From NCBI GenBank assembly GCA_036141575.1, contig JAYZXF010000002.1, positions 9,536-73,535 of the forward strand: a stretch of DNA of 64,000 bases, written 5' to 3'. Below the pieces are notes generated by a model. That model made no database searches and had not been told where the DNA came from. It worked only from the letters and a program-made list of their open reading frames with translations. Of the stretch, positions 7,059 through 54,693 are shown in pieces. A program made the translations under genes and the position numbers. The first letter of the stretch is position 1, and each line of letters begins with the position of its first letter. This stretch comes from Pseudomonadota bacterium. GTDB lineage: Bacteria > Pseudomonadota > Alphaproteobacteria > UBA2136 > JAPKEQ01.

Positions 7059-7988
7059 TTATTTCACCATTGTTTCGATAAATTCAATAATAGGAGTGGC
7101 CGTATCAATGCCTGTTGTTTTCTCAATACCGTTTAGGCCTGGAGAAGAGTTCACCTCAAGCACAACAGGGCCGTTTTTAGAGCGCAGCATATCTACACCA
7201 GCGACATTAAGGCCGAGTGATTTTGTGGCTTGTATAGCTGTTTGAATCTCTTCTTTAGAGAGTTCAACATTGCCAGCGCTACCACCACGGTGGAGATTTG
7301 AACGGAAGTCACCATCTTTGGCTTTACGTTTCATGCCTGCAATGACTTTATCACCCACAACAAAGCAGCGAATGTCTTCACAGTTGGCTTCTTTCACAAA
7401 CTCTTGCACCATTAGGTTTACCTTAAGGTCCATGAAGGCTTCAATCATGCTGATGGCTGTTTTACGGTCATCCATGAGGAAGACACCGTTACCATGTGTC
7501 CCTTCTAGAAGTTTGACAACAAACTGCTCTTGCTGCATTTGCTCCATAATGTGTGGTAGGTCATCTGGGTTATGGGCAAACCATGTTTCAGGCATGCCAA
7601 TACCATCACGAGAGAGGAGTTGTAGTGCACGTAGTTTGTCGCGTGAACGAGAAATAGCAATGGAGCGGTTTACACTGTGTACGCCCATCATTTCAAATTG
7701 GCGAAGTACGGCTGTTCCGTAAAATGTAATTGAGGCGCCAATGCGCGGAATAATCGCATCAAATCCTTCAAGAGATTCGCCTTTATACACAACAGATGGG
7801 TTGTTGCTTGAAATGTTCATGCTACAGCTGAGCGTGTTGATGATATGCATATCATGTCCACGAGCGCGGCCTGCATCAACAAGGCGGTTTGTTGAGTAAA
7901 TTTTAGGGGCAACAGAAAGCACGCCAATTTTAAGCGGTTTTTTAGCTTTTGTTGGGTTGCTTTTAATAAAATCAAACATGTGTGTCAT
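7059..7988 (-). CDS. rimK: RimK-family alpha-L-glutamate ligase (ATP-grasp).
   Basis: ATP-grasp fold sequence with an N-terminal pre-ATP-grasp region and RimK-like length (~300 aa). Confidence 0.85.
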
Positions 7989-8499
7989 CCAGTTGGTAAC
8001 GCTTAGATTGAAGCGTTATGCAGTGTTCAAGTTGTGGCGTGCCCATAAGGTGGGCAAATGTTGGGCTCACAAGACAAGCTTTACCAAGTGAGCTGCGGCC
8101 AAAGAGCATGCGGTAAGTCATATCTTTACGCGATGTGAGGGTGATATCAATTGGCCAACGGTACGGGCCAACATGCACCCAAGTCAGAATCACGTAGCGT
8201 GTGTTTGTTTTACCGTTGGAGCTGGTGATTTCACGTTTATCGAGAATTTTTGCTTCGCACGTGAGTTCTTCTTTGCGGTTTTTGCGGTTAGGGTGCGTAA
8301 TAAAGCGAACCCACTGCTCACCATCTTTTTCAAATGGGGTAATCTTTTCAGCATGCAGAGAGGACGTCTTTGCGCCTGTATCAATTTTGGCTTCGAGAGC
8401 CTCAATGCCGAGTTTAGGGAGTGCGACTGTTTCCACCCATCCCACCATTACTTGTGGGAATCTTGGCGGCTTGAGCGCTTGTGTCTTTTTCGTAGTCAT
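7972..8499 (-). CDS. RimK-associated retropepsin-like aspartyl protease (ATP-dependent zinc protease family, DUF785).
   Basis: About 175 aa, immediately upstream of and overlapping rimK. The family is routinely paired with RimK. The start is taken at an internal Met (MTTKK...). Confidence 0.7.
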
Positions 8500-42139: not shown

Positions 42140-42245
42140 GTAAGGTGCAGCTCACCAAGGACGGACGCAGCGCACTGTAAACCCCGCCAGGCCCGAAAGG
42201 GAGCAACGGTAGCAAAAGCGGGTGGGTCGTCCTTGGCCTTTTTCT
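42140..42245 (+). ncRNA. ffs: Signal recognition particle RNA (4.5S RNA, ffs), small bacterial type.
   Basis: A long hairpin (CCAAGGACG...CGUCCUUGG) encloses the conserved domain IV-like core CCAGGCCCGAAAGGGAGCAACGG with a GNRA loop. It ends in a T-run. Confidence 0.7.
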
Positions 42246-42541
42246 TTAGGGTGCTTTTTGCACTTTGCCTCACTTAAGCACGTTTTGTGCTCTGCGTTCG
42301 TTAAAGGCACAAAAACCTCTCCTAAAATTTTTTAAATTAAGCCTGTGCGAGTGGGAGCAAGTGCGACCCAAAAGGCTCAGGCCTTTTGTTGCTGGTCCGC
42401 AAGGTAATGCTACGCTCGAGCGAGAGCGAGGCGGGCAAGCTAAATATAAGTAAAGCAGGTTGTGGCAGTTAGGGCTTTCGTGTGCAAGGCACTGTCTCTA
42501 AGCACAAAAAAAAGCCCCCTTTCGGAGGCTTTGGGGATCGT

Positions 42542-43547: not shown

Positions 43548-44525
<978 letters not shown>

Positions 44526-44568
44526 AAATTTAAATTTTAATAAAACTAAACTTTAGGGAATAAATATT

Positions 44569-45744
44569 ATGAACCTACACGAGTATCAATCAAAAGAACT
44601 CATGAAGAAATTTGGCGTAGCCGTACCGAATGGTATTATGGCTGACAGCCCAGAAGCTGCGGAAGCTGCTGCAAAAGAGCTAGGAACAGCAATCACTGTT
44701 GTTAAAGCTCAAGTGCACACGGGTGGCCGTGGTAAAGCGGGTGGTGTGAAGGTGTGTAAATCACCAGCTGAAGCAAAAGAAGCTGCTAAAGCAATGCTTG
44801 GCGAAATTCTTGTGACAAAGCAAACAGGCCCACAAGGCTTGCCTATTCATAAAGTATACGTTGAAGAAGGTAGCGACATTGCAAACGAGCTTTACTTCTC
44901 AATCATGCTAGACCGCGAAACTTCTCGCCCATTCATTATGGCATCTTCTGAAGGTGGTATGGACATTGAAGAAGTGGCTGAAGAAACACCTGAGAAAATC
45001 CTAAACGTAGATATCGATCCTATGGTTGGCCTTATGCCTTACCAAGCACGTGATCTTGCGTTTGGTATGGGTCTAGAAGGTGAGCAAATTAAGAACTTTT
45101 CTAAAGTGGCAATGGGCCTATGGAAAGCGTTTGATGCCCTAGATGCAGACATGCTTGAAATTAACCCACTTGTTGTGACGGGCGATAACAAGGTTCTTGT
45201 CCTTGATACAAAGCTTGCTATTGATGGGAACGCACTATTCCGTCACCCTGATCTTGCTGACATGGATGATCACACACAGCAAGACTCTAAAGAAGTTGAA
45301 GCACACAAATACGACCTAAACTACGTGGCTCTAGACGGTACAATTGGTTGCATGGTAAACGGTGCTGGCCTTGCGATGGCGACAATGGACATTATTAAGC
45401 ACTACGGTGAATCTCCAGCGAACTTCCTAGACGTTGGTGGTGGCGCAACAGAAGAAAAAGTAACAGCTGCGTTTAAGATCATTCTATCTGATCCAAACGT
45501 AAACGGTATTCTTGTGAACATCTTCGGTGGCATCATGAAGTGTGATGTGATCGCAAAAGGTGTGGTCGCTGCAGCGAAAGAAGTACAGATTTCTGTACCA
45601 CTTGTTGTGCGACTAGAAGGTACAAACGTTGATGCTGGTAAGAAGATTCTATCTGAATCAGGTCTGCCAATTACACCAGCGGATAGTCTAGACGACGCTG
45701 CCAAGAAGATCATCGCAGAAGTGCGTAACGCGAAAGCTGCGTAA
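44569..45744 (+). CDS. sucC: Succinate--CoA ligase (ADP-forming) beta subunit.
   Basis: An ATP-grasp N-terminal domain plus a CoA-ligase C-terminal domain, with a canonical sequence. Confidence 0.9.
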
Positions 45745-45800
45745 GTAGAATATGTGTTGGCGGAGGGTGAAAGCTCTCCGCCTCTATTAAAGAAAATATA

Positions 45801-46526
45801 ATGAAGACTTATTTACAGTTCTTAAACGAATCGTCTTTTAAAGATCAGGTGAGCATTGGTTCGCAGGTTTATCGTAACCTTGCGTTTTGTAACGTAATGC
45901 ACATGTTGTTTTTAGCGTTTGCTATGTCTGTATGTGTCGTTGCGGCTTACTTTGCACCCGGATTTGTATCAGGTGTTGTAAGTGGAGTTTTGATTACATT
46001 GACGCATGACCATGTTGATCTAGGGTGGACTTTGTCTGGGCTGCAAACAACAATTCTTGCGATTATATTTTCGTCATATTTTATTTACCGATTTGCTATT
46101 GCTGTCTTGGGAAGTATTAGGTTTCTCTATTTTAGATTTAAAAACTTTAATATTAAAAGGCCAGGGCTTCTTACTTTATTGTATTACGGTTCTATTTTGT
46201 TTGTAAGTGGAGTTGTTGGGGGGATGGTTTATTGGGAATCAGATGCTTTTGAATATACGGAATCTATATATTTACTGCTTGTTATTATGCTAGCATTAAG
46301 TGTGTTTTATGCTGTGGTGGCAGTTGTGACAAACTTTAAACCATTACGTGTGTTAAACAAGGAGGATGAGCTTCTTCCTGAGGAGTTTAAGTTCTCTGGC
46401 GCGGTTCTTGTCTTTGGAGTTATTCTTGCGGTTATAGTTGTTATTTCATCATTGTTAGATGTTGCGAATATAGCTCAAGAAATTAGAGACTTTCATATTG
46501 AAATAGGGGGATATAGCGATGATTAA
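45801..46526 (+). CDS. Hypothetical polytopic membrane protein (241 aa), AT-rich, inserted between sucC and sucD.
   Basis: 5-6 TM helices with no recognisable family. Codon usage is visibly AT-richer than sucC and sucD. Confidence 0.65.
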
Positions 46527-47190
46527 AAATATCATTTTTGATTGTGATGGGGTTTTGGTGGATACCGTAACGCCGCACTATCAGATTATGTCTGAGTATC
46601 TGACGGGGCACGGCATTACTATGACGGCTGCTGAGATTGTCGCTGAGTTTAGCGGGGCGATGTGGACGTCGTTCTTCCCTGTTCTTGAAGAACGCTTTGG
46701 TGTCACACTTCCTGAAACGGTTTATAATGATCTGCGTGATGCAATGCTTGAATATGACCATACGGTGGGCCTGGAAGCATGCACGGATGTAGAAAAGCTT
46801 CTGCGTGAACCATCTCTTAAGAAAGCTTGTGCATCTAACTCGAGAACGCCAACAGTTAAAGAGCACATCTCTAACCATGGTTGGGATGATGTATTTGAAA
46901 CAGTTGTGGGTGTGGATTTGATTGAGAATCCAAAACCTGCGCCAGATCTTTACTTGATGGCCTTGAGAGAAGCTGGCTTTGAGGCACACGAAACTGTGGT
47001 GATTGAAGACAGTCCAACAGGTGTGAAGGCTGGTAAAGCGGCAGGCATGCAGGTAATAGCTTACACAGGGGTATATCCAGATAAAGCAGAGCGTACTGAG
47101 CTGATGAAAGCAGCTGGCGCAGACTGGGTGATGGATGACTATAATGAAATTTTAACATTTTTAACGGAAGCTGCTGTTAAAGCGGCCTAA
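46519..47190 (+). CDS. HAD-superfamily hydrolase (beta-phosphoglucomutase-like subfamily IA).
   Basis: The HAD motif I is IIFDCDGVLVDT. Later motifs are also present (SNSRT; IEDSPTGVKAGKAAGMQVIA). It overlaps the upstream ORF by 8 nt. Confidence 0.75.
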   Translation: MIKNIIFDCDGVLVDTVTPHYQIMSEYLTGHGITMTAAEIVAEFSGAMWTSFFPVLEERFGVTLPETVYNDLRDAMLEYDHTVGLEACTDVEKLLREPSLKKACASNSRTPTVKEHISNHGWDDVFETVVGVDLIENPKPAPDLYLMALREAGFEAHETVVIEDSPTGVKAGKAAGMQVIAYTGVYPDKAERTELMKAAGADWVMDDYNEILTFLTEAAVKAA

Positions 47191-47208: not shown

Positions 47209-48090
47209 ATGTCTATCTACATTGATAAAGATACAAAAGTAATTTGCCAAGGTTTCACTGGTCAGAACGGTACGTTCCACAGTGAGCAGGCGGTTAAGTA
47301 CGGTACAAAAATGGTTGGTGGTGTAACACCAGGTAAGGGCGGCACAACGCACCTTGGTCTGCCAGTATTTAACACAGTGAAGGAAGCGGTAACAGCAACA
47401 GAAGCAACAGCATCTGTAATCTACGTACCACCTCCATTTGCAGCGGATGCAATCCTTGAAGCGATTGACGCAGGTATTGAGCTTGCGATCTGTATTACTG
47501 AGGGTATCCCTGTAAAAGATATGATTAAAGTAAAAGCGCGTCTTCAGCGTAGCGACTGTAAAACACGCCTCATTGGCCCGAACTGCCCAGGTGTGATTAC
47601 ACCAGAAGACGATGCAGGCTGTAAGATTGGTATTATGCCAGCACACATTCACAAAAAAGGTAAAATCGGTATCGTATCACGCTCTGGTACACTGACTTAT
47701 GAAGCGGTTGCACAAACAACAGCTGAAGGTCTTGGCCAGTCGACTTGTGTAGGTATCGGTGGTGACCCTGTGAACGGCACAAACTTCATCGATGTCCTTA
47801 AAGAGTTTCAAAATGATCCTCAAACTGAAGGTATTGTGATGATTGGTGAAATTGGTGGTACAGCAGAAGAAGAAGCGGCTGCTTTCATTAAAGCAAACGT
47901 AACCAAACCTGTTGCTGCATTTATCGCCGGTTCTAGCGCACCTAAAGGTAAGCGCATGGGCCACGCTGGTGCGATCGTTTCTGGTGGTCAAGGTACTGCT
48001 GAAAGTAAGGTTGAAGCTCTAACTGATGCAGGTGCGAAAATCGCTCCAACGCCATCTGATCTAGGTAAGACTATTGCTAGCATGATGTAA
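47209..48090 (+). CDS. sucD: Succinate--CoA ligase alpha subunit.
   Basis: A CoA-binding and active-site His region (SRSGTLTYE; GHAGAIV). Confidence 0.9.
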
Positions 48091-48140: not shown

Positions 48141-48229
48141 CTAAGGGGTTGCACCTTTCAAAAAGGTATTGTATACATGCACTCCTTTCGGAATCTTTTA
48201 TCTTTTTCTTCTATGACAAGGAGTGTCAC

Positions 48230-48595
48230 ATGCCACAGCAACTCACGGAGAGTGTGCCGAGTGATTTTTGGTGCGGGGTAGATGTAAAGCCTAACAAGCC
48301 CATTAAGAAACTCATTAACATGGGGCTTGAGCCTGAAATTTTTAACTTCTATAAGCAAGGTTATGACCAACACACAAGTCAAATGGCTGCAGTTCTGACA
48401 ACGTATGCCAGAGCTTTTAGTGAGGGCAGGCGCCGAACCATTCGCGCGGTTTCTTTTCGTTCTCCTGCTCAGAGAACATATGTGGGAGTACGCCTGGAAT
48501 TGGATGTGGTGGAGTTTTATCAGCAGCCTGGCCGTGGTCGTGAACGTCGCATGGAGGATGTGTTACGCTCCTTTATGGTGGCGCAAAAAGCCTAA
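48230..48595 (+). CDS. Hypothetical protein (121 aa), a standalone transcription unit.
   Basis: An AAGGAG RBS 8 nt upstream of the ATG. It is flanked by terminators on both sides and shows no recognisable domain. Confidence 0.55.
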   Translation: MPQQLTESVPSDFWCGVDVKPNKPIKKLINMGLEPEIFNFYKQGYDQHTSQMAAVLTTYARAFSEGRRRTIRAVSFRSPAQRTYVGVRLELDVVEFYQQPGRGRERRMEDVLRSFMVAQKA

Positions 48596-48613
48596 GAATA
48601 AATCGATTTATAA

Positions 48614-48645
48614 AAAGCCCCTAGAAGGGGGCTTTTTTGTTTCTA
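48614..48645 (+). terminator. Rho-independent terminator.
   Basis: The sequence aaaaaGCCCCTagaaGGGGGCttttttgtttc. Confidence 0.6.
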
Positions 48646-51327: not shown

Positions 51328-51897
51328 TTGGCTATTACAGCAATTGCAGGCGCTGCAGCAAAGGCAGGGGCAGCCGCTGGTAAGGCGGGCGGTTTTGCTG
51401 CGAAAGGTGCTGGAAGAGTTGCGAAAGGTGCAGCTAAAAAAGCTGGAAAAGCTGCTAAAAATAAAGTGAAGCGTGGTATTTTATCGCGCGTCTTAAGCTT
51501 TTTTGCCAACCCGATTGTGCAGGCGATTATTGCAATTCCGTTCCCTGTGGCTATTATTTCCAACCAAATTATTCCTTCTATTAGTAAGGAAATTAAAATT
51601 ATAAAAATGGTGCTCGCCTTGTTTGCAGGGGGAGGAGAGGCTGCGATTGCTTGGCCTATAATTATTATTGGGCTTGCAGCAACAGCTGCAGGTGCTGCTG
51701 CTGGTAACGCTATATGTGACTGGTCATGGTGTACAAAATTGGGTGCTATGATTGGTGCAGGTATTGGTACGCTAACTGGTGGTGCTACAATTGCAGGAAC
51801 TATGGCTCTTATCTTTCACACCTCTCTTATTGCTCTGGCGTGGTTTATTTTGGTATTTAAATTTGTGATAAAATCTGTTTTACCGAAAAGAATGTAG
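51328..51897 (+). CDS. Hypothetical membrane protein with an Ala/Gly/Lys-rich N-terminal low-complexity region and glycine-zipper TM segments. TTG start.
   Basis: The frame is open from an upstream stop, and the only plausible start is TTG at 51328, after an AAGGGA RBS. Motifs GAMIGAGIGTLTGGATIAG. The antisense ORF 51297-51563 is a compositional mirror. Confidence 0.5.
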   Translation: MAITAIAGAAAKAGAAAGKAGGFAAKGAGRVAKGAAKKAGKAAKNKVKRGILSRVLSFFANPIVQAIIAIPFPVAIISNQIIPSISKEIKIIKMVLALFAGGGEAAIAWPIIIIGLAATAAGAAAGNAICDWSWCTKLGAMIGAGIGTLTGGATIAGTMALIFHTSLIALAWFILVFKFVIKSVLPKRM

Positions 51898-52411: not shown

Positions 52412-53437
52412 TTACTCCTTTAAAAGAGTTGTGATTGGAACAAGCTGTACGCCCGCCGGGAGTGTTTTTACCCATGCTGCAATGGCAGCAGTTGTTTCTG
52501 GGTATGGGTGCCCAATCGCAATTGCTGAACCGTTTTGTTGTGCTTGCTTAAGCGTTTCTGCAAGAGCTTGGTTGATGCGTACACTGTCTTGGTAGTGATC
52601 AAGAAAGACATCACGTGTGAGCAGAGGAAGAGGAAGATCTTTTGCTGCAGCTTTGACGCGACTCTGAGCTGTTGTGAGACTATCTAGGAAGAAGAGCTTG
52701 TGATCTGAAATGGCACGCAGTGCAGGGCGCATGGCTTTTTCACTAGAGGTCATTTTAGAGCCCATGTGGTTATTCGCGCCAACAGCAATTGAGAGGAACG
52801 GGGTAATGTTCTCAACAGTTCTCTTGTAGAGTTCGTCTTCTGGTAGCTCTACGTAAAGTGCATTTTCGCCTGGGTTAGGTGTGTAGCCTTCTGCATTGGT
52901 ACGTGCTTCCATTGGAATATGAACCATAATTTCTTGGCCGCGCTTATGGGCAAAGTCTGCTTGCTTCATGCTGCCATTACCGTATGGCAGGAAGGCAAGA
53001 GTCACTTCTTTCGGAAGTTCATCTAGAACGCGTTGACTTTCAGAAACATTGACGCCCATATCATCAATAACAATGGCAATTTTAGGGCCGTTTAGCACTT
53101 TGACATCAGCCATATTTGCTTCATAGCGCGCTTGTGATTCCTTTGCAGGTTCAAACGGGAGCATGTTGCCTTCAATTAAAGTGTTGAGGCTTGGCAGTGC
53201 CGTTGCCGAAACTTGTGAGAGTGTTTCTTTTGAAAGAGGAGGGCTGTAGAAAGGGATCCTCTGTAGCGTTTGTACAGATGGGTTGTTCTCAGCCTGTGCA
53301 GTTGCTTGTTCTTTTTGTCCGAAGTAAAAGGCAGAAGCAACGCATGCTACAAAGAGAAGCACACCCAGAGTGCTTGCAATAACAAGTCTCAGGGTGTGCG
53401 GTTGTTTGGGTGCAGGGTTTACGACTTCTTCGACCAT
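52412..53437 (-). CDS. Divergent polysaccharide deacetylase family protein (YibQ-like).
   Basis: An N-terminal TM segment and a YibQ-like domain (IAIVIDDMG...AFLPYG...HIPME). Confidence 0.75.
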   Translation of the reverse strand: MVEEVVNPAPKQPHTLRLVIASTLGVLLFVACVASAFYFGQKEQATAQAENNPSVQTLQRIPFYSPPLSKETLSQVSATALPSLNTLIEGNMLPFEPAKESQARYEANMADVKVLNGPKIAIVIDDMGVNVSESQRVLDELPKEVTLAFLPYGNGSMKQADFAHKRGQEIMVHIPMEARTNAEGYTPNPGENALYVELPEDELYKRTVENITPFLSIAVGANNHMGSKMTSSEKAMRPALRAISDHKLFFLDSLTTAQSRVKAAAKDLPLPLLTRDVFLDHYQDSVRINQALAETLKQAQQNGSAIAIGHPYPETTAAIAAWVKTLPAGVQLVPITTLLKE

Positions 53438-54693
53438 AGTTCCAGTGCTTTCACCATATCAATGGCACGTTCAAGTTGGTAGTCGTAAGGGCGTTCGTCT
53501 TTTTTGTCTTTCTTATCTTTAGAAGATAGTTTTTCACCAGCTTCTTCCAGCATCTTCTCAAGCTCAATGTGGCCTTTAAGAGAGGCTTCAGATGGGCGGT
53601 CAGATACATCAACGTCTTCAACTTTTAGAGGTTTCACTTCGATGTCTGGCTCAATACCTTTGGCTTGGATAGAACGGCCAGATGGTGTGTAGTAAAGTGC
53701 CGTTGTGAGGCGCATACCAGAGTTACCTGGGAGCTGCATAATTGTTTGTACAGACCCTTTACCAAAAGACTTTGTTCCAAGAACAAGTGCACGGTTATGG
53801 TCTTGTAGGGCGCCTGCAACAATCTCTGAAGCAGATGCGCTACCGCCGTTGATCAGAACAACAATTGGAGCGCCTTCCATAACATCGCCAGAGCGTGCGT
53901 TATAACGCTGGTTTTGGTTTTCAATGCGGCCACGTGTTGAAACAATTTCACCTTGCTCTAGGAACGCATCAGAGGCAGCAACAGCTTGTGACAGAAGTCC
54001 ACCAGGGTTGTTACGTAGGTCAAGAACAAGGCCTTGTAGTGGCTCGCCTTCGTTCTCTTTTTTCAGGTCATTTAGGTGTTTTTTAATTTGCTTACCAACA
54101 TGCTCGTTAAACGTTGTGATACGTAGGTAGCCAACACCATCACGTTCTAGGCGAGACTTCACAGGAATAATTTTGATGATGTCACGTGTGATTGTGATGT
54201 CCATCGCTTTACGCTCAGACTCACGGAAAACTTTAAGCTTAATGTCGCTACCGACTTTACCGCGCATTTGGTCAACAGCTTCTGAAAGAGTTTGGCCTTG
54301 TACGTCTTTACCATCAATTTGGATGATGAGGTCACCAGCTTCAACGCCAGCTTCATAGGCAGGTGTGCCTTCAATTGGCGAAACCACTTTAACAACACCA
54401 CGGTCCATTGTGACCTCAATACCAAGACCACCAAACTCACCTTTAGTTTGCTCAGTCATAGATTTCATCGCGTCTTCTGGGAGGTAAGAAGAGTGTGGAT
54501 CGAGGGCTGTTAGCATGCCTTCAATGGCATCTTCTACAAGAGTTGTGTCTGAGATTTCATCCACGTAGCTTGTTTTAATTCGGTCAATGACATGCGTCAT
54601 AATATCGAGCTTTTCATAGAGCTCTTTGTTATCAACTGCATGTGCAGAAAGTGTAAGCAGGGATGCAAAACCAATGGTGGCAAGTAAACGCAT
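53419..54693 (-). CDS. ctpA: Carboxyl-terminal processing protease (S41 family).
   Basis: A signal peptide, a PDZ domain and an S41 catalytic region (GGSASASEIVAGALQD; SFGKGSVQ). Confidence 0.85.
   Translation of the reverse strand: MRLLATIGFASLLTLSAHAVDNKELYEKLDIMTHVIDRIKTSYVDEISDTTLVEDAIEGMLTALDPHSSYLPEDAMKSMTEQTKGEFGGLGIEVTMDRGVVKVVSPIEGTPAYEAGVEAGDLIIQIDGKDVQGQTLSEAVDQMRGKVGSDIKLKVFRESERKAMDITITRDIIKIIPVKSRLERDGVGYLRITTFNEHVGKQIKKHLNDLKKENEGEPLQGLVLDLRNNPGGLLSQAVAASDAFLEQGEIVSTRGRIENQNQRYNARSGDVMEGAPIVVLINGGSASASEIVAGALQDHNRALVLGTKSFGKGSVQTIMQLPGNSGMRLTTALYYTPSGRSIQAKGIEPDIEVKPLKVEDVDVSDRPSEASLKGHIELEKMLEEAGEKLSSKDKKDKKDERPYDYQLERAIDMVKALELWSKKS

Follow-up and report, generated by a model that had tools for sequence, protein, structure and literature searches.

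A clade-fixed HAD-IA hydrolase gene and a polymorphic membrane-protein slot between sucC and sucD in a small alphaproteobacterial clade

Introduction

The window analyzed here is a stretch of 64,000 nucleotides from an uncultured alphaproteobacterium. In it, sucC and sucD, which encode the two subunits of succinate-CoA ligase, are separated by a membrane-protein gene of low GC content and a gene for a HAD-IA hydrolase. A sequence-only reading of the window had proposed that the pair was acquired horizontally into the middle of a core TCA operon. Do the two genes share one foreign origin, or do they have separate histories? We compared the locus with its relatives in three lineages (A, B and C), most of which are short metagenomic contigs, and with reference genomes.

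Results

Gene content of the locus

The operon begins with mdh (malate dehydrogenase; 43566..44525, forward strand), which scores 468 bits against NF004863 (cut-off 283). It is followed, all on the forward strand, by sucC (44569..45744), an ORF for a polytopic membrane protein of 241 aa (45801..46526), a gene for a phosphatase-type HAD-IA hydrolase of 223 aa with a C1 cap (46519..47190), and sucD (47209..48090). Both ligase genes exceed their NCBIfam equivalog cut-offs, sucC as the beta subunit (NF001913, 590.9 bits vs 370) and sucD as the alpha subunit (NF004230, 473.9 bits vs 336). The ORFs called in the sequence-only reading were all recovered at the same positions and on the same strand. 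Because assemblies of two independent read sets (L001 and L002) have the identical arrangement, with proteins 100% identical, the segment is not an assembly artefact.

The membrane ORF and the HAD gene overlap by 8 nt (ATGATTAA), and sucD starts 18 nt past the HAD stop codon with its own Shine-Dalgarno-like GGGAAAG upstream. No canonical terminator was found between the genes of the sucC-sucD region. Given this tight spacing and the lack of a canonical terminator, the membrane gene and the HAD gene are likely to be co-expressed with sucCD, a prediction on which we agree with the earlier reading. We also considered an internal sucD promoter. A single 10-of-12 match lies inside the HAD gene, and promoter-like sites were no commoner than in shuffled sequence, so this candidate was rejected.

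The sucC-sucD junction in other genomes

The two ligase genes had been described as almost always adjacent. This holds for most reference loci with both genes, 56 of 72 having a gap of ≤60 nt, but it is overstated, since 14 of the 72 have gaps of >150 nt with extra ORFs. In seven further loci, sucD is missing from the 5.8-6 kb downstream of sucC. A scan of genome contigs with SucC gave identities of ≤64% among the matches listed.

The genes at these other junctions, in Alphaproteobacteria and Verrucomicrobia, resemble those of the window in occupying the same junction on the same strand and in being short, mostly unannotated and often envelope-targeted. They differ in content (signal-peptide proteins, DUF1579, a methyltransferase and glyoxalase/VOC proteins), with no polytopic membrane protein and no HAD among them, and their sequences are unrelated to the membrane protein of the window. 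A search of the literature for genes between sucC and sucD returned nothing relevant.

The membrane-protein family

Hydropathy predicts 5-6 transmembrane stretches in the 241-aa protein, in agreement with the original count, and an AlphaFold2 model from a five-sequence alignment shows five long helices with a pLDDT of only 51, too low for the fold to be used. The protein has no Pfam or NCBIfam match at E ≤ 0.01. When five family members were searched singly, only stray matches appeared (E ≥ 0.02), each confined to one member. A profile search of the PDB gave nothing credible, PHROGs gave no match below E = 0.08, and a scan of viral contigs (IMG/VR) returned no relative. PADLOC reported a KwaA match in one member (E = 0.0099, 14 bits) and nothing in the remaining members. 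Across these resources (Pfam, NCBIfam, PADLOC, PHROGs and PDB), the protein has no recognisable family, as first described. A match to a known succinate-related transporter had been named as one result that would speak against the insertion. We looked for transporter families, including succinate and C4-dicarboxylate transporters, and found none in Pfam, NCBIfam or the PDB.

The low GC content that had drawn attention to this gene is real: at 0.365 it is the lowest of the 50 ORFs in the window (mean 0.454, sd 0.024). GC3 (0.314) is just 1.8 sd under the mean and similar to that of sucD (0.330). Because the deficit falls mainly at codon positions 1 and 2 (GC1 0.463, GC2 0.318), the low GC is driven by amino-acid content.

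The membrane family is real and clade-restricted. It comprises ~7 distinct sequences among ~15 billion proteins and was found solely in the slot between sucC and the HAD gene; neither the window nor the clade loci have a copy elsewhere. Queried alone, the window protein retrieved only itself in a word-index search, and a five-member family profile added clade members and nothing else. When 1.84 billion representatives were scanned in full with HMMER, three real relatives and two spurious repeat proteins appeared. Between the long types (224-251 aa), pairwise BLAST E-values range from 2e-10 to 7e-69. A nearby membrane ORF (51328-51897) was compared as a possible paralogue and ruled out.

Two motifs are conserved across the family, one N-terminal (F-x-K-E-x-S-F-K-D-D-V-S-I) and one juxtamembrane (Y-F-I-Y-R...Y-F-R-F-x-N-F-N-x-K-R-P-G-L). 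Both are predicted to face the cytoplasm, and the variable portions are predicted to be the transmembrane and periplasmic parts. This conservation bears on whether the ORF is a gene at all. A chance ORF in AT-rich spacer DNA would fit the lack of homologues of known function and the weak Shine-Dalgarno sequence ahead of the ATG. However, six very different alleles share an intact frame of 205-251 codons, a common arrangement of helices and both motifs, with dN/dS of 0.2-0.6, and we regard a chance ORF as next to impossible.

The hydrolase gene

The hydrolase scores well above the cut-offs of PF13419 (96.7 bits vs 23.8) and TIGR01509 (HAD-IA v3; 67 vs 29.4), which upholds its assignment to HAD-IA. 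All four motifs are present, and six orthologues all have the catalytic residues D8-x-D10, S106, K139 and E163-D164. The substrate-specific HAD-IA equivalogs all fell below their cut-offs (beta-PGM, 69 vs 189; PGP, 68.5 vs 225; BT2121-type diphosphatase, 75.8 vs 245; YqaB, 54 vs 215; HxpB, 54 vs 191), as did the TIGR02009 subfamily model (82 vs 153). The nearest solved structures are 2fdr, the BT2127 pyrophosphatase, CbbY and beta-PGM. The protein is thus like the beta-phosphoglucomutase/YqaB-like phosphatases (PF13419, TIGR01509, TIGR02009) in its catalytic motifs and C1-cap length, but it differs from them in that its homologues outside the clade are ≤38% identical and in that no other HAD lies between sucC and sucD in the 72 reference loci.

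Only three close clusters of this protein were found (96, 82 and 69% identical), and all three lie between sucC and sucD. The next match, at 38%, is in an unrelated context. A scan of metagenome contigs with the HAD alignment gave generic HADs, the best among the matches listed being 23-29% identical. All relatives found, in the three lineages, have the gene at the sucC-sucD junction (69-97% identical), and its composition is native (GC 0.457, GC3 0.406). Given its presence at this junction in all relatives found and its native composition, the HAD gene is old and has been inherited vertically. It is also kept where the membrane gene is absent (L083 and L112-L121), at 93% and 82-83% identity and with its catalytic residues intact.

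These results bear directly on the question of a single recent horizontal gain, in which membrane gene and HAD gene would have arrived as one block from a foreign, low-GC donor. The extreme GC of the membrane gene, its overlap with the HAD gene and the fact that sucC and sucD are mostly adjacent in the closest reference genomes would all fit such an event. Against it, the HAD gene is native in GC and GC3, occupies the same site in all three lineages with a divergence that tracks the neighbouring genes, and occurs without the membrane gene. In addition, the membrane family is found nowhere outside the clade, so no foreign donor is visible. There is no integrase or transposase among the annotated neighbours (roughly 5-8 kb each side of the slot at the loci inspected), and a search for flanking direct or inverted repeats that would mark a mobile element returned only short, chance-level ones. 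A joint foreign gain is thus highly improbable. What survives of the proposed two-gene insertion is the membrane gene, the only one of the pair that behaves as exchanged DNA.

Slot states among relatives

We define the slot as the interval between the sucC stop codon and the HAD start codon, and call its membrane-protein genes cassettes. Among genomes whose SucC is 98.7-100% identical to that of the window, there are five slot states, all in lineage A: the 241-aa type (the window), a 205-aa type followed in tandem by a 237-aa type (L089), a second 237-aa type (L095), a 224-aa type (L122/L123) and an empty slot (L112-L116). In lineage B the slot is empty in L083 and L117-L121 and holds a 205-aa type in L096; in lineage C (L087) it holds a 251-aa type. 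The contigs of L095 and L096 end at the slot.

Among these genomes of lineage A, the cassette types are 28-48% identical to one another in amino acids. The window cassette is 26-38% identical to the other long types, vs 96-100% for the flanks. The 205-aa type of lineage B is 64% identical to that of lineage A. In L087, the most distant lineage, the homologue has near-native GC (0.451 vs 0.471). A four-gene order conserved with native composition in related genomes had been proposed as evidence against an insertion. Our comparison agrees in part: the clade keeps the arrangement, yet what fills the slot varies and the cassettes of lineages A and B are non-native in composition.

Every cassette is the immediate upstream neighbour of the HAD gene, with a stop codon that overlaps or abuts the HAD start in four independent types, and its conserved motifs are predicted to lie on the cytoplasmic side, as the HAD would. 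One could therefore see membrane protein and hydrolase as a functional pair, the former an anchor, a partner or a transporter-like substrate mover, with a link to the TCA cycle that is metabolic rather than positional. However, the HAD is retained in the cassette-free haplotypes, so the partner is dispensable. Non-synonymous divergence is ~30-40x faster in the cassette than in the HAD, unlike co-evolving partners, and the cassette resembled no transporter family in Pfam, NCBIfam or the per-member search. We consider a functional pair unlikely.

Divergence of the cassettes and their flanks

Between the window and L089, amino-acid identity is 99.4% for mdh, 98.7% for sucC, 96% for the HAD, 99.7% for sucD and 95.8% for dnaX, vs 35-38% for the membrane protein. 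Identity of sucC between the window and its lineage-A relatives is 98.7-100%, and that of sucD over the clade 96.6-100%. At the DNA level, identity between the window and L089 is lost at the TAA stop of sucC and regained at the ATG of the HAD gene. Over the slot types as a whole, similarity is lost shortly past that stop and the hairpin leader behind it. The empty haplotypes of lineages A and B have a common junction of TAA, six nucleotides, and ATG plus an extra codon.

In lineage A, the cassettes have dS of 1.35-2.4, vs 0.20-0.47 in flanking and nearby genes, although at 30-48% protein identity the cassette dS is inflated by alignment error. Their dN/dS is 0.19-0.59. A count of differing codons at positions with identical residues avoids most of this inflation. 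It gave 47-52% for the cassettes, based on just 68-105 codons, vs 13-25% for the flanks, and the cassette value matches that of the flanks across the clade's deepest split (43-49%). Because the synonymous sites of the cassettes are saturated while those of the flanks are not, the cassettes are ancient alleles or paralogues and not fast-diverged copies. Among the flanking genes, dS is highest in the HAD gene, which adjoins the slot (0.45 vs 0.25-0.38 for the others). Raised synonymous change at island edges is a reported signature of replacement islands (PMC4033161).

These measurements bear on two further explanations besides the exchange of old alleles. The first is a single vertical gene that evolves very fast in place, driven by positive selection or loosened constraint, and that is now and then deleted but undergoes no allele exchange. 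The family is homologous over three lineages and always in the same slot, only two short motifs are conserved, so that constraint is low, and the neighbouring membrane ORF is likewise highly diverged. However, acceleration would raise dN and not dS, and here the cassettes of lineage A have 3-10x the synonymous divergence of their flanks, equal to the clade's deepest split, with dN/dS below 1. Five slot states at SucC identities of ≥98.7% and sharp break points also argue against it, and no sign of a local hotspot of mutation, for example a diversity-generating retroelement, was seen here. In-place evolution is an improbable account of the slot.

The second starts from an ancestor with several paralogous cassettes in tandem, each behind its own leader, of which different genomes would have lost different ones, without transfer between genomes. 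The two tandem types of L089 are what such an array would leave behind, the 205-aa type of L096 is diverged to a degree that fits vertical descent, and the similar short leader TTATAAAGGRTTTAAAATG ahead of several cassettes would permit deletion between repeats. On the other hand, this explanation requires that a recent lineage-A ancestor had at least five paralogues and that each strain cleanly lost its own set of them, and no genome with more than two copies was seen. The raised synonymous divergence of the HAD gene fits recombination tracts, and the empty haplotype has its distinctive junction in both lineages A and B. We therefore find loss as the sole process doubtful.

The leader hairpin

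Between the sucC stop and the cassette lies a GC-rich hairpin of 10 bp with a GAAA loop (45759..45782, forward strand). The 76-nt stretch around it (45735-45810) folds at -23.1 kcal/mol (z = -3.6), and no proper T tract follows it. A near-identical hairpin leader precedes three different cassette types (window, L122/L123 and L095), the equivalent position in L087 is taken by a different hairpin, and the empty-slot haplotypes have none. The short leader resembling TTATAAAGGRTTTAAAATG is found ahead of the long-type cassettes of L122/L123 and L095 and of the 237-aa cassette of L089. A dispersed repeat of the REP or MITE type was excluded, the hairpin sequence being single-copy in the window. An attenuator or mRNA-stability element is a possible role.

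Discussion

The two genes between sucC and sucD have different histories. The HAD-IA phosphatase gene became fixed at the sucC-sucD junction in the common ancestor of this small, uncultured and probably marine clade, and has passed down vertically from then on. The slot next to it is either empty or holds one or two members of a polytopic, putatively inner-membrane family of 205-251 aa. On balance, we favor the view that it is a one-gene, replacement-type flexible islet with ancient cassette alleles, beside a clade-fixed HAD. Since the cassettes are synonymously saturated and their boundaries sharp, the routes of their segregation would be homologous recombination anchored in the conserved flanks (sucC and the HAD gene), uneven loss of members of a small tandem array, or the two together. 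Recombinational replacement and paralogue loss would both fit these data, and L089 carries two types in tandem. In place of the horizontal acquisition first proposed, the source of exchange would be the clade's own allele pool and not a foreign donor.

The cassette would be read through from the mdh-sucC transcript past the conserved leader hairpin, and would be translationally coupled to the HAD gene by ATGA or ATGATTAA overlaps, thus possibly riding on a strongly expressed core operon. Why the slot is polymorphic is a more tentative matter. Conserved cytoplasmic motifs together with variable transmembrane and periplasmic parts fit an envelope protein under frequency-dependent selection, and phages or membrane-acting toxins might exert it. 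A predicted inner-membrane helical protein is, however, no obvious example of a surface structure exposed to phages, which is a point against this view.

The slot is best compared with the replacement flexible genomic islands of aquatic bacteria (Lopez-Perez, Martin-Cuadrado, Rodriguez-Valera 2014, PMC4033161). In both, the locus is constant while its content differs between near relatives, here in five states, and the content is older than the flanks. Conserved flanks that could serve as recombination anchors, sharp boundaries, raised synonymous change in the adjacent flank, a composition under the genome mean and an envelope protein as the product (predicted in our case) are further likenesses. 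The slot differs in being a single gene of 0.6-0.75 kb (or two) and not a multi-gene cluster, in having alleles that all belong to one protein family as well as an empty allele, and in interrupting a core TCA operon at the junction of the genes for two subunits of a single enzyme. Its product is a predicted inner-membrane helical protein and not an O-antigen, flagellin or pilin.

Integron cassette arrays offer a second comparison. As in those, one or two short promoterless ORFs occupy a fixed slot behind an upstream promoter, and each long-type cassette has a short conserved leader. Unlike integrons, the slot has no integrase (within roughly 5-8 kb of annotated sequence on each side) and no attC-like imperfect inverted repeats. 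Its cassettes all belong to one family, and the mechanism is likely homologous and not site-specific recombination.

A bolder reading, which we offer as speculation, is that the slot is a dedicated diversity locus. A new inner-membrane family, with ancient alleles and a null, would be maintained by phage- or toxin-driven frequency-dependent selection, with recombination anchored in sucC and HAD/sucD, the most conserved genes at hand, and constitutively expressed from the TCA promoter. Because extra ORFs, many with signal peptides, occur at 14 of the 72 reference junctions, the junction may repeatedly have served Alphaproteobacteria as a safe harbour for variable envelope genes.

If the islet reading holds, strain-level replacement variation, usually found in large surface-polysaccharide and flagellar islands, also works at the scale of a single gene, and is possible inside an essential operon of central metabolism, between the subunits of one enzyme. 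It would also add a new membrane-protein family of very narrow distribution whose alleles are ancient, and a HAD phosphatase that is fixed in a TCA operon and has a substrate perhaps worth finding. Low GC and an interrupted core operon are not by themselves proof of foreign DNA: of the two genes here, the HAD gene has long been resident and the membrane gene appears to be exchanged inside the clade's own pool. Given the recurrent use of the sucC-sucD junction, annotation pipelines should not presume that sucC and sucD are adjacent.

Two further observations concern variable genes beyond the slot. The many signal-peptide ORFs at the 14 reference junctions are not alignable even within one genus. 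The nearby membrane ORF at 51328-51897 is also strongly diverged between the window and L089 (49% identity), and fast-changing membrane proteins may thus be a general trait of the clade, which tells against the islet reading.

Gene content of the interrupted sucCD operon

On the forward strand of the window, mdh (43566-44525), sucC (44569-45744) and sucD (47209-48090) all score well over their respective NCBIfam cut-offs, and dnaX, ybaB and recR lie downstream of sucD. Between sucC and sucD are two further forward-strand genes, a 241-aa membrane ORF (45801-46526) and a 223-aa HAD-IA hydrolase ORF (hereafter HAD; 46519-47190; PF13419 96.7 bits, TIGR01509 67 bits). The HAD ATG is 8 nt ahead of the end of the membrane ORF, and 18 nt separate its stop from the sucD start. 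The same arrangement, exact at the protein level, occurs in two independent assemblies. The sequence-only reading had described this split, the hydrolase family of the second gene and the 8-nt overlap, and gene calls, family scores and both assemblies agree with it. The low GC that it reported for the membrane gene was also confirmed: at 0.365 it is the lowest among 50 window ORFs (mean 0.454, sd 0.024). Because its GC3 (0.314) is merely 1.8 sd low and near that of sucD (0.330), the deficit is mostly a matter of amino-acid content. Hydropathy indicates five to six hydrophobic stretches, and an AlphaFold2 model (pLDDT 51) was too poor for a fold search.

A polymorphic slot next to a fixed hydrolase

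Relatives were drawn from the contigs of close HAD clusters and from cluster members, and comprise lineage A (SucC 98.7-100% identical to that of the window), lineage B (about 93%) and lineage C (91%). The space between the sucC stop and the HAD start, which we call the slot, is polymorphic among these close relatives. Within lineage A, the membrane-protein gene in the slot (the cassette) is of a 241-aa type in the window, a 224-aa type in L122/L123 and a second 237-aa type in L095, whose contig begins 55 nt upstream; L089 carries a 205-aa and a 237-aa type in succession, and the slot is empty in L112-L116. It is likewise empty in L083 and L117-L121 of lineage B, while L096 has a 205-aa type before HAD on a contig without sucC. 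L087 of lineage C has a 251-aa type between sucC and HAD. Between sucC and sucD, this space is the only variable part in the clade. HAD lies directly before sucD in all clade loci found, with or without an upstream cassette, and sucC precedes the slot wherever a clade locus extends far enough upstream. HAD is thus a long-established resident, fixed in the clade. A single foreign insertion of both genes, as first proposed, is thus rejected for HAD, which stands between sucC and sucD in all lineages; for the membrane gene the proposal holds only as exchange within the clade.

The slot boundaries are sharp. The DNA of the window and L089 is near-identical up to the sucC TAA, then unalignable until the HAD ATG, where the two become identical once more. 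Empty slots in lineages A and B have a common junction of TAA, six nt, and ATG plus one extra codon. No integrase, transposase or flanking repeats were found near the slot in annotated clade neighbours or by repeat search.

The 56-nt leader of the window cassette contains a 10-bp hairpin (45759-45782; -23.1 kcal/mol and z = -3.6 for the surrounding 76-nt stretch). The leader through the hairpin is almost identical before three cassette types (window, L122/L123, L095); in L087 the equivalent place has a GC-rich hairpin of another kind, with a GCAA loop, and empty-slot haplotypes have none. The window hairpin lacks a proper T tract and was not flagged by the terminator search. As it is single-copy in the window, a dispersed repeat was ruled out.

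Ancient alleles of one cassette family

The cassettes all form a single family, confined to this clade and to the slot. Among the four long lineage-A types (224-241 aa), identities are 28-48%; against the lineage-C type they are 25-35% (BLAST E-values between long types, 2e-10 to 7e-69). The 205-aa type is a distantly related paralogue. Conservation is limited to two motifs, which are predicted to lie on the cytoplasmic side: an N-terminal F-x-K-E-x-S-F-K-D-D-V-S-I...V-Y-R-N-L and a juxtamembrane Y-F-I-Y-R...Y-F-R-F-x-N-F-N-x-K-R-P-G-L. The helices and loops vary, with insertions and deletions. As the sequence-only reading had noted, the 241-aa protein has no recognisable family: neither Pfam nor NCBIfam matched it, nor can it be recognised as a succinate transporter. 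The family as a whole had no match in Pfam, NCBIfam, PADLOC, PHROGs or PDB, no relative was found in viral contigs, and no second copy was found beyond the slot in the window or clade loci.

The cassette alleles are far older than their flanks. Between the window and L089, neighbouring proteins are 96-99.7% identical and the membrane proteins 35-38%. Nei-Gojobori estimates within lineage A gave dS of 0.20-0.47 for flanking and nearby genes and 1.35-2.4 for the cassette (dN 0.47-0.79, dN/dS 0.19-0.59). To avoid alignment error, we also counted codon differences solely at identical aligned amino acids: a different codon is used at 47-52% of these sites in the cassette, against 13-25% in the flanks. 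When the window is compared with the most distant lineage, the flanks give a matching 43-49%; the alleles are therefore at least as old as the clade. Fast evolution in place was ruled out by synonymous divergence far above that of the flanks. Since dN/dS is below 1 and the frame is open in six alleles, the cassette is a real protein-coding gene.

HAD, which adjoins the slot, has the highest dS among flanking genes (0.45). This resembles replacement flexible genomic islands exchanged by homologous recombination, which are reported to show raised synonymous change at their boundaries (PMC4033161). We infer that homologous recombination, acting through sucC on one side and HAD on the other, and/or the differential loss of copies from a small tandem array, two of which still stand in L089, maintains and reshuffles the cassette alleles. 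The cassette would be expressed by read-through of the mdh-sucC transcript and translationally coupled to HAD. As a guess, phages or membrane-acting toxins could exert selection on the slot, which would account for ancient alleles, a null allele and variation mainly in non-cytoplasmic parts. Replacement-type flexible loci are already known; new here are the one-gene scale, a position that separates the two subunit genes of a core TCA enzyme, the fact that every allele falls in a single family not otherwise known, and the presence of HAD as a fixed neighbour. The significance is tempered by the small, uncultured clade and by the fact that sucCD interruptions are not rare.

Predicted function of the hydrolase

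Among 5.8 billion proteins, HAD has only three close clusters (96, 82 and 69% identical); the next match is 38% identical and in an unrelated gene context. The catalytic residues D8, D10, S106, K139 and E163-D164 are invariant in six orthologues, scores fall well under every substrate-specific model, and the nearest solved structures are 2fdr (an Agrobacterium hypothetical protein), the BT2127 pyrophosphatase, CbbY and beta-phosphoglucomutases. HAD most likely encodes a small-molecule phosphatase; a tie to succinyl-CoA synthetase chemistry is speculation.

Interruption of sucCD in other genomes

We surveyed the junction in 80 reference-genome loci among the matches listed (SucC 56-64% identical to that of the window). 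Among these listed matches, 72 of the 80 loci had both genes; the gap was ≤60 nt in 56 of the 72 and >150 nt with extra ORFs in 14, and sucD was not within 5.8-6 kb downstream of sucC in seven loci. The claim that sucC and sucD are almost always adjacent was thus overstated. Extra genes recur at this junction, and interruption as such is therefore less surprising. The extra ORFs encode signal-peptide proteins without a Pfam match (Paracoccus, Leisingera, other Rhodobacteraceae and Bradyrhizobium relatives), a DUF1579 protein, a methyltransferase and, in Verrucomicrobia, glyoxalase/VOC proteins. Neither a HAD hydrolase of any kind nor a membrane protein of the window type was among them.

The Rhodobacterales and Bradyrhizobium-like ORFs (L026:7164-7706, L028:7960-8541, L050:7194-7688, L064:7194-7772, L069:7198-7731, L071:7211-7708, L073:7200-7970, L077:7210-7878 and 7875-8396) mostly have a signal peptide and no Pfam match. 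BLAST found no similarity among them except a weak pair (L026/L028, E = 2e-4). They align on one invariant Cys, most with an N-terminal F-x-x-x-C motif, and may be one very divergent secreted family residing in the junction. The verrucomicrobial glyoxalase/VOC genes, one (L060:5851-6207) or two (L068:7185-7562 and 7559-7915) between sucC and sucD, could be methylmalonyl-CoA epimerase-like and hence tied to succinyl-CoA metabolism. In one MAG (L014:7199-7558), sucD directly follows sucC and its reading frame is broken after ~119 codons, a frameshift or assembly error.

Other features near the locus

In part of lineages A and B, a 152-aa NUDIX hydrolase gene lies between mdh and sucC (L089:3402-3860, L112:3324-3782, L117:3324-3782; identity 99% within lineage A and 90% between the two lineages). 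The window (equivalent junction 44526-44568), L083 and L087 lack this gene, so this junction is a presence/absence polymorphism too. Between sucD and dnaX, within ORF 48149-48595, lies a BrnA-antitoxin-like ORF (48227-48595, +; PF14384 E = 7e-7, PHROG antitoxin E = 1e-7), listed with a terminator-like hairpin (48612-48637). A ~98% identical 121-aa protein occurs in L112, L113 and L115, and the ORF is missing from L089, L083 and L087. Next to the window ORF, a BrnT-like toxin partner was looked for in vain. After recR lies another fast-diverging membrane gene, an Ala/Gly/Lys-rich ORF (51328-51897, +) whose sequence is not related to that of the cassettes; it is 49% identical in L089, 43% in L083 and 34% in L087, versus 77-97% for its neighbours. 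A bacterial small SRP RNA (RF00169, 50.6 bits) lies at 42154-42246 (+), and ORFs overlapping it are therefore probably spurious. A Rickettsia sRNA47 match (RF02800, 69.7 bits against a gathering score of 60) at 53719-54018 (+) is antisense to a C-terminal-processing peptidase gene (53419-54693, - strand) and may reflect merely conserved coding sequence.
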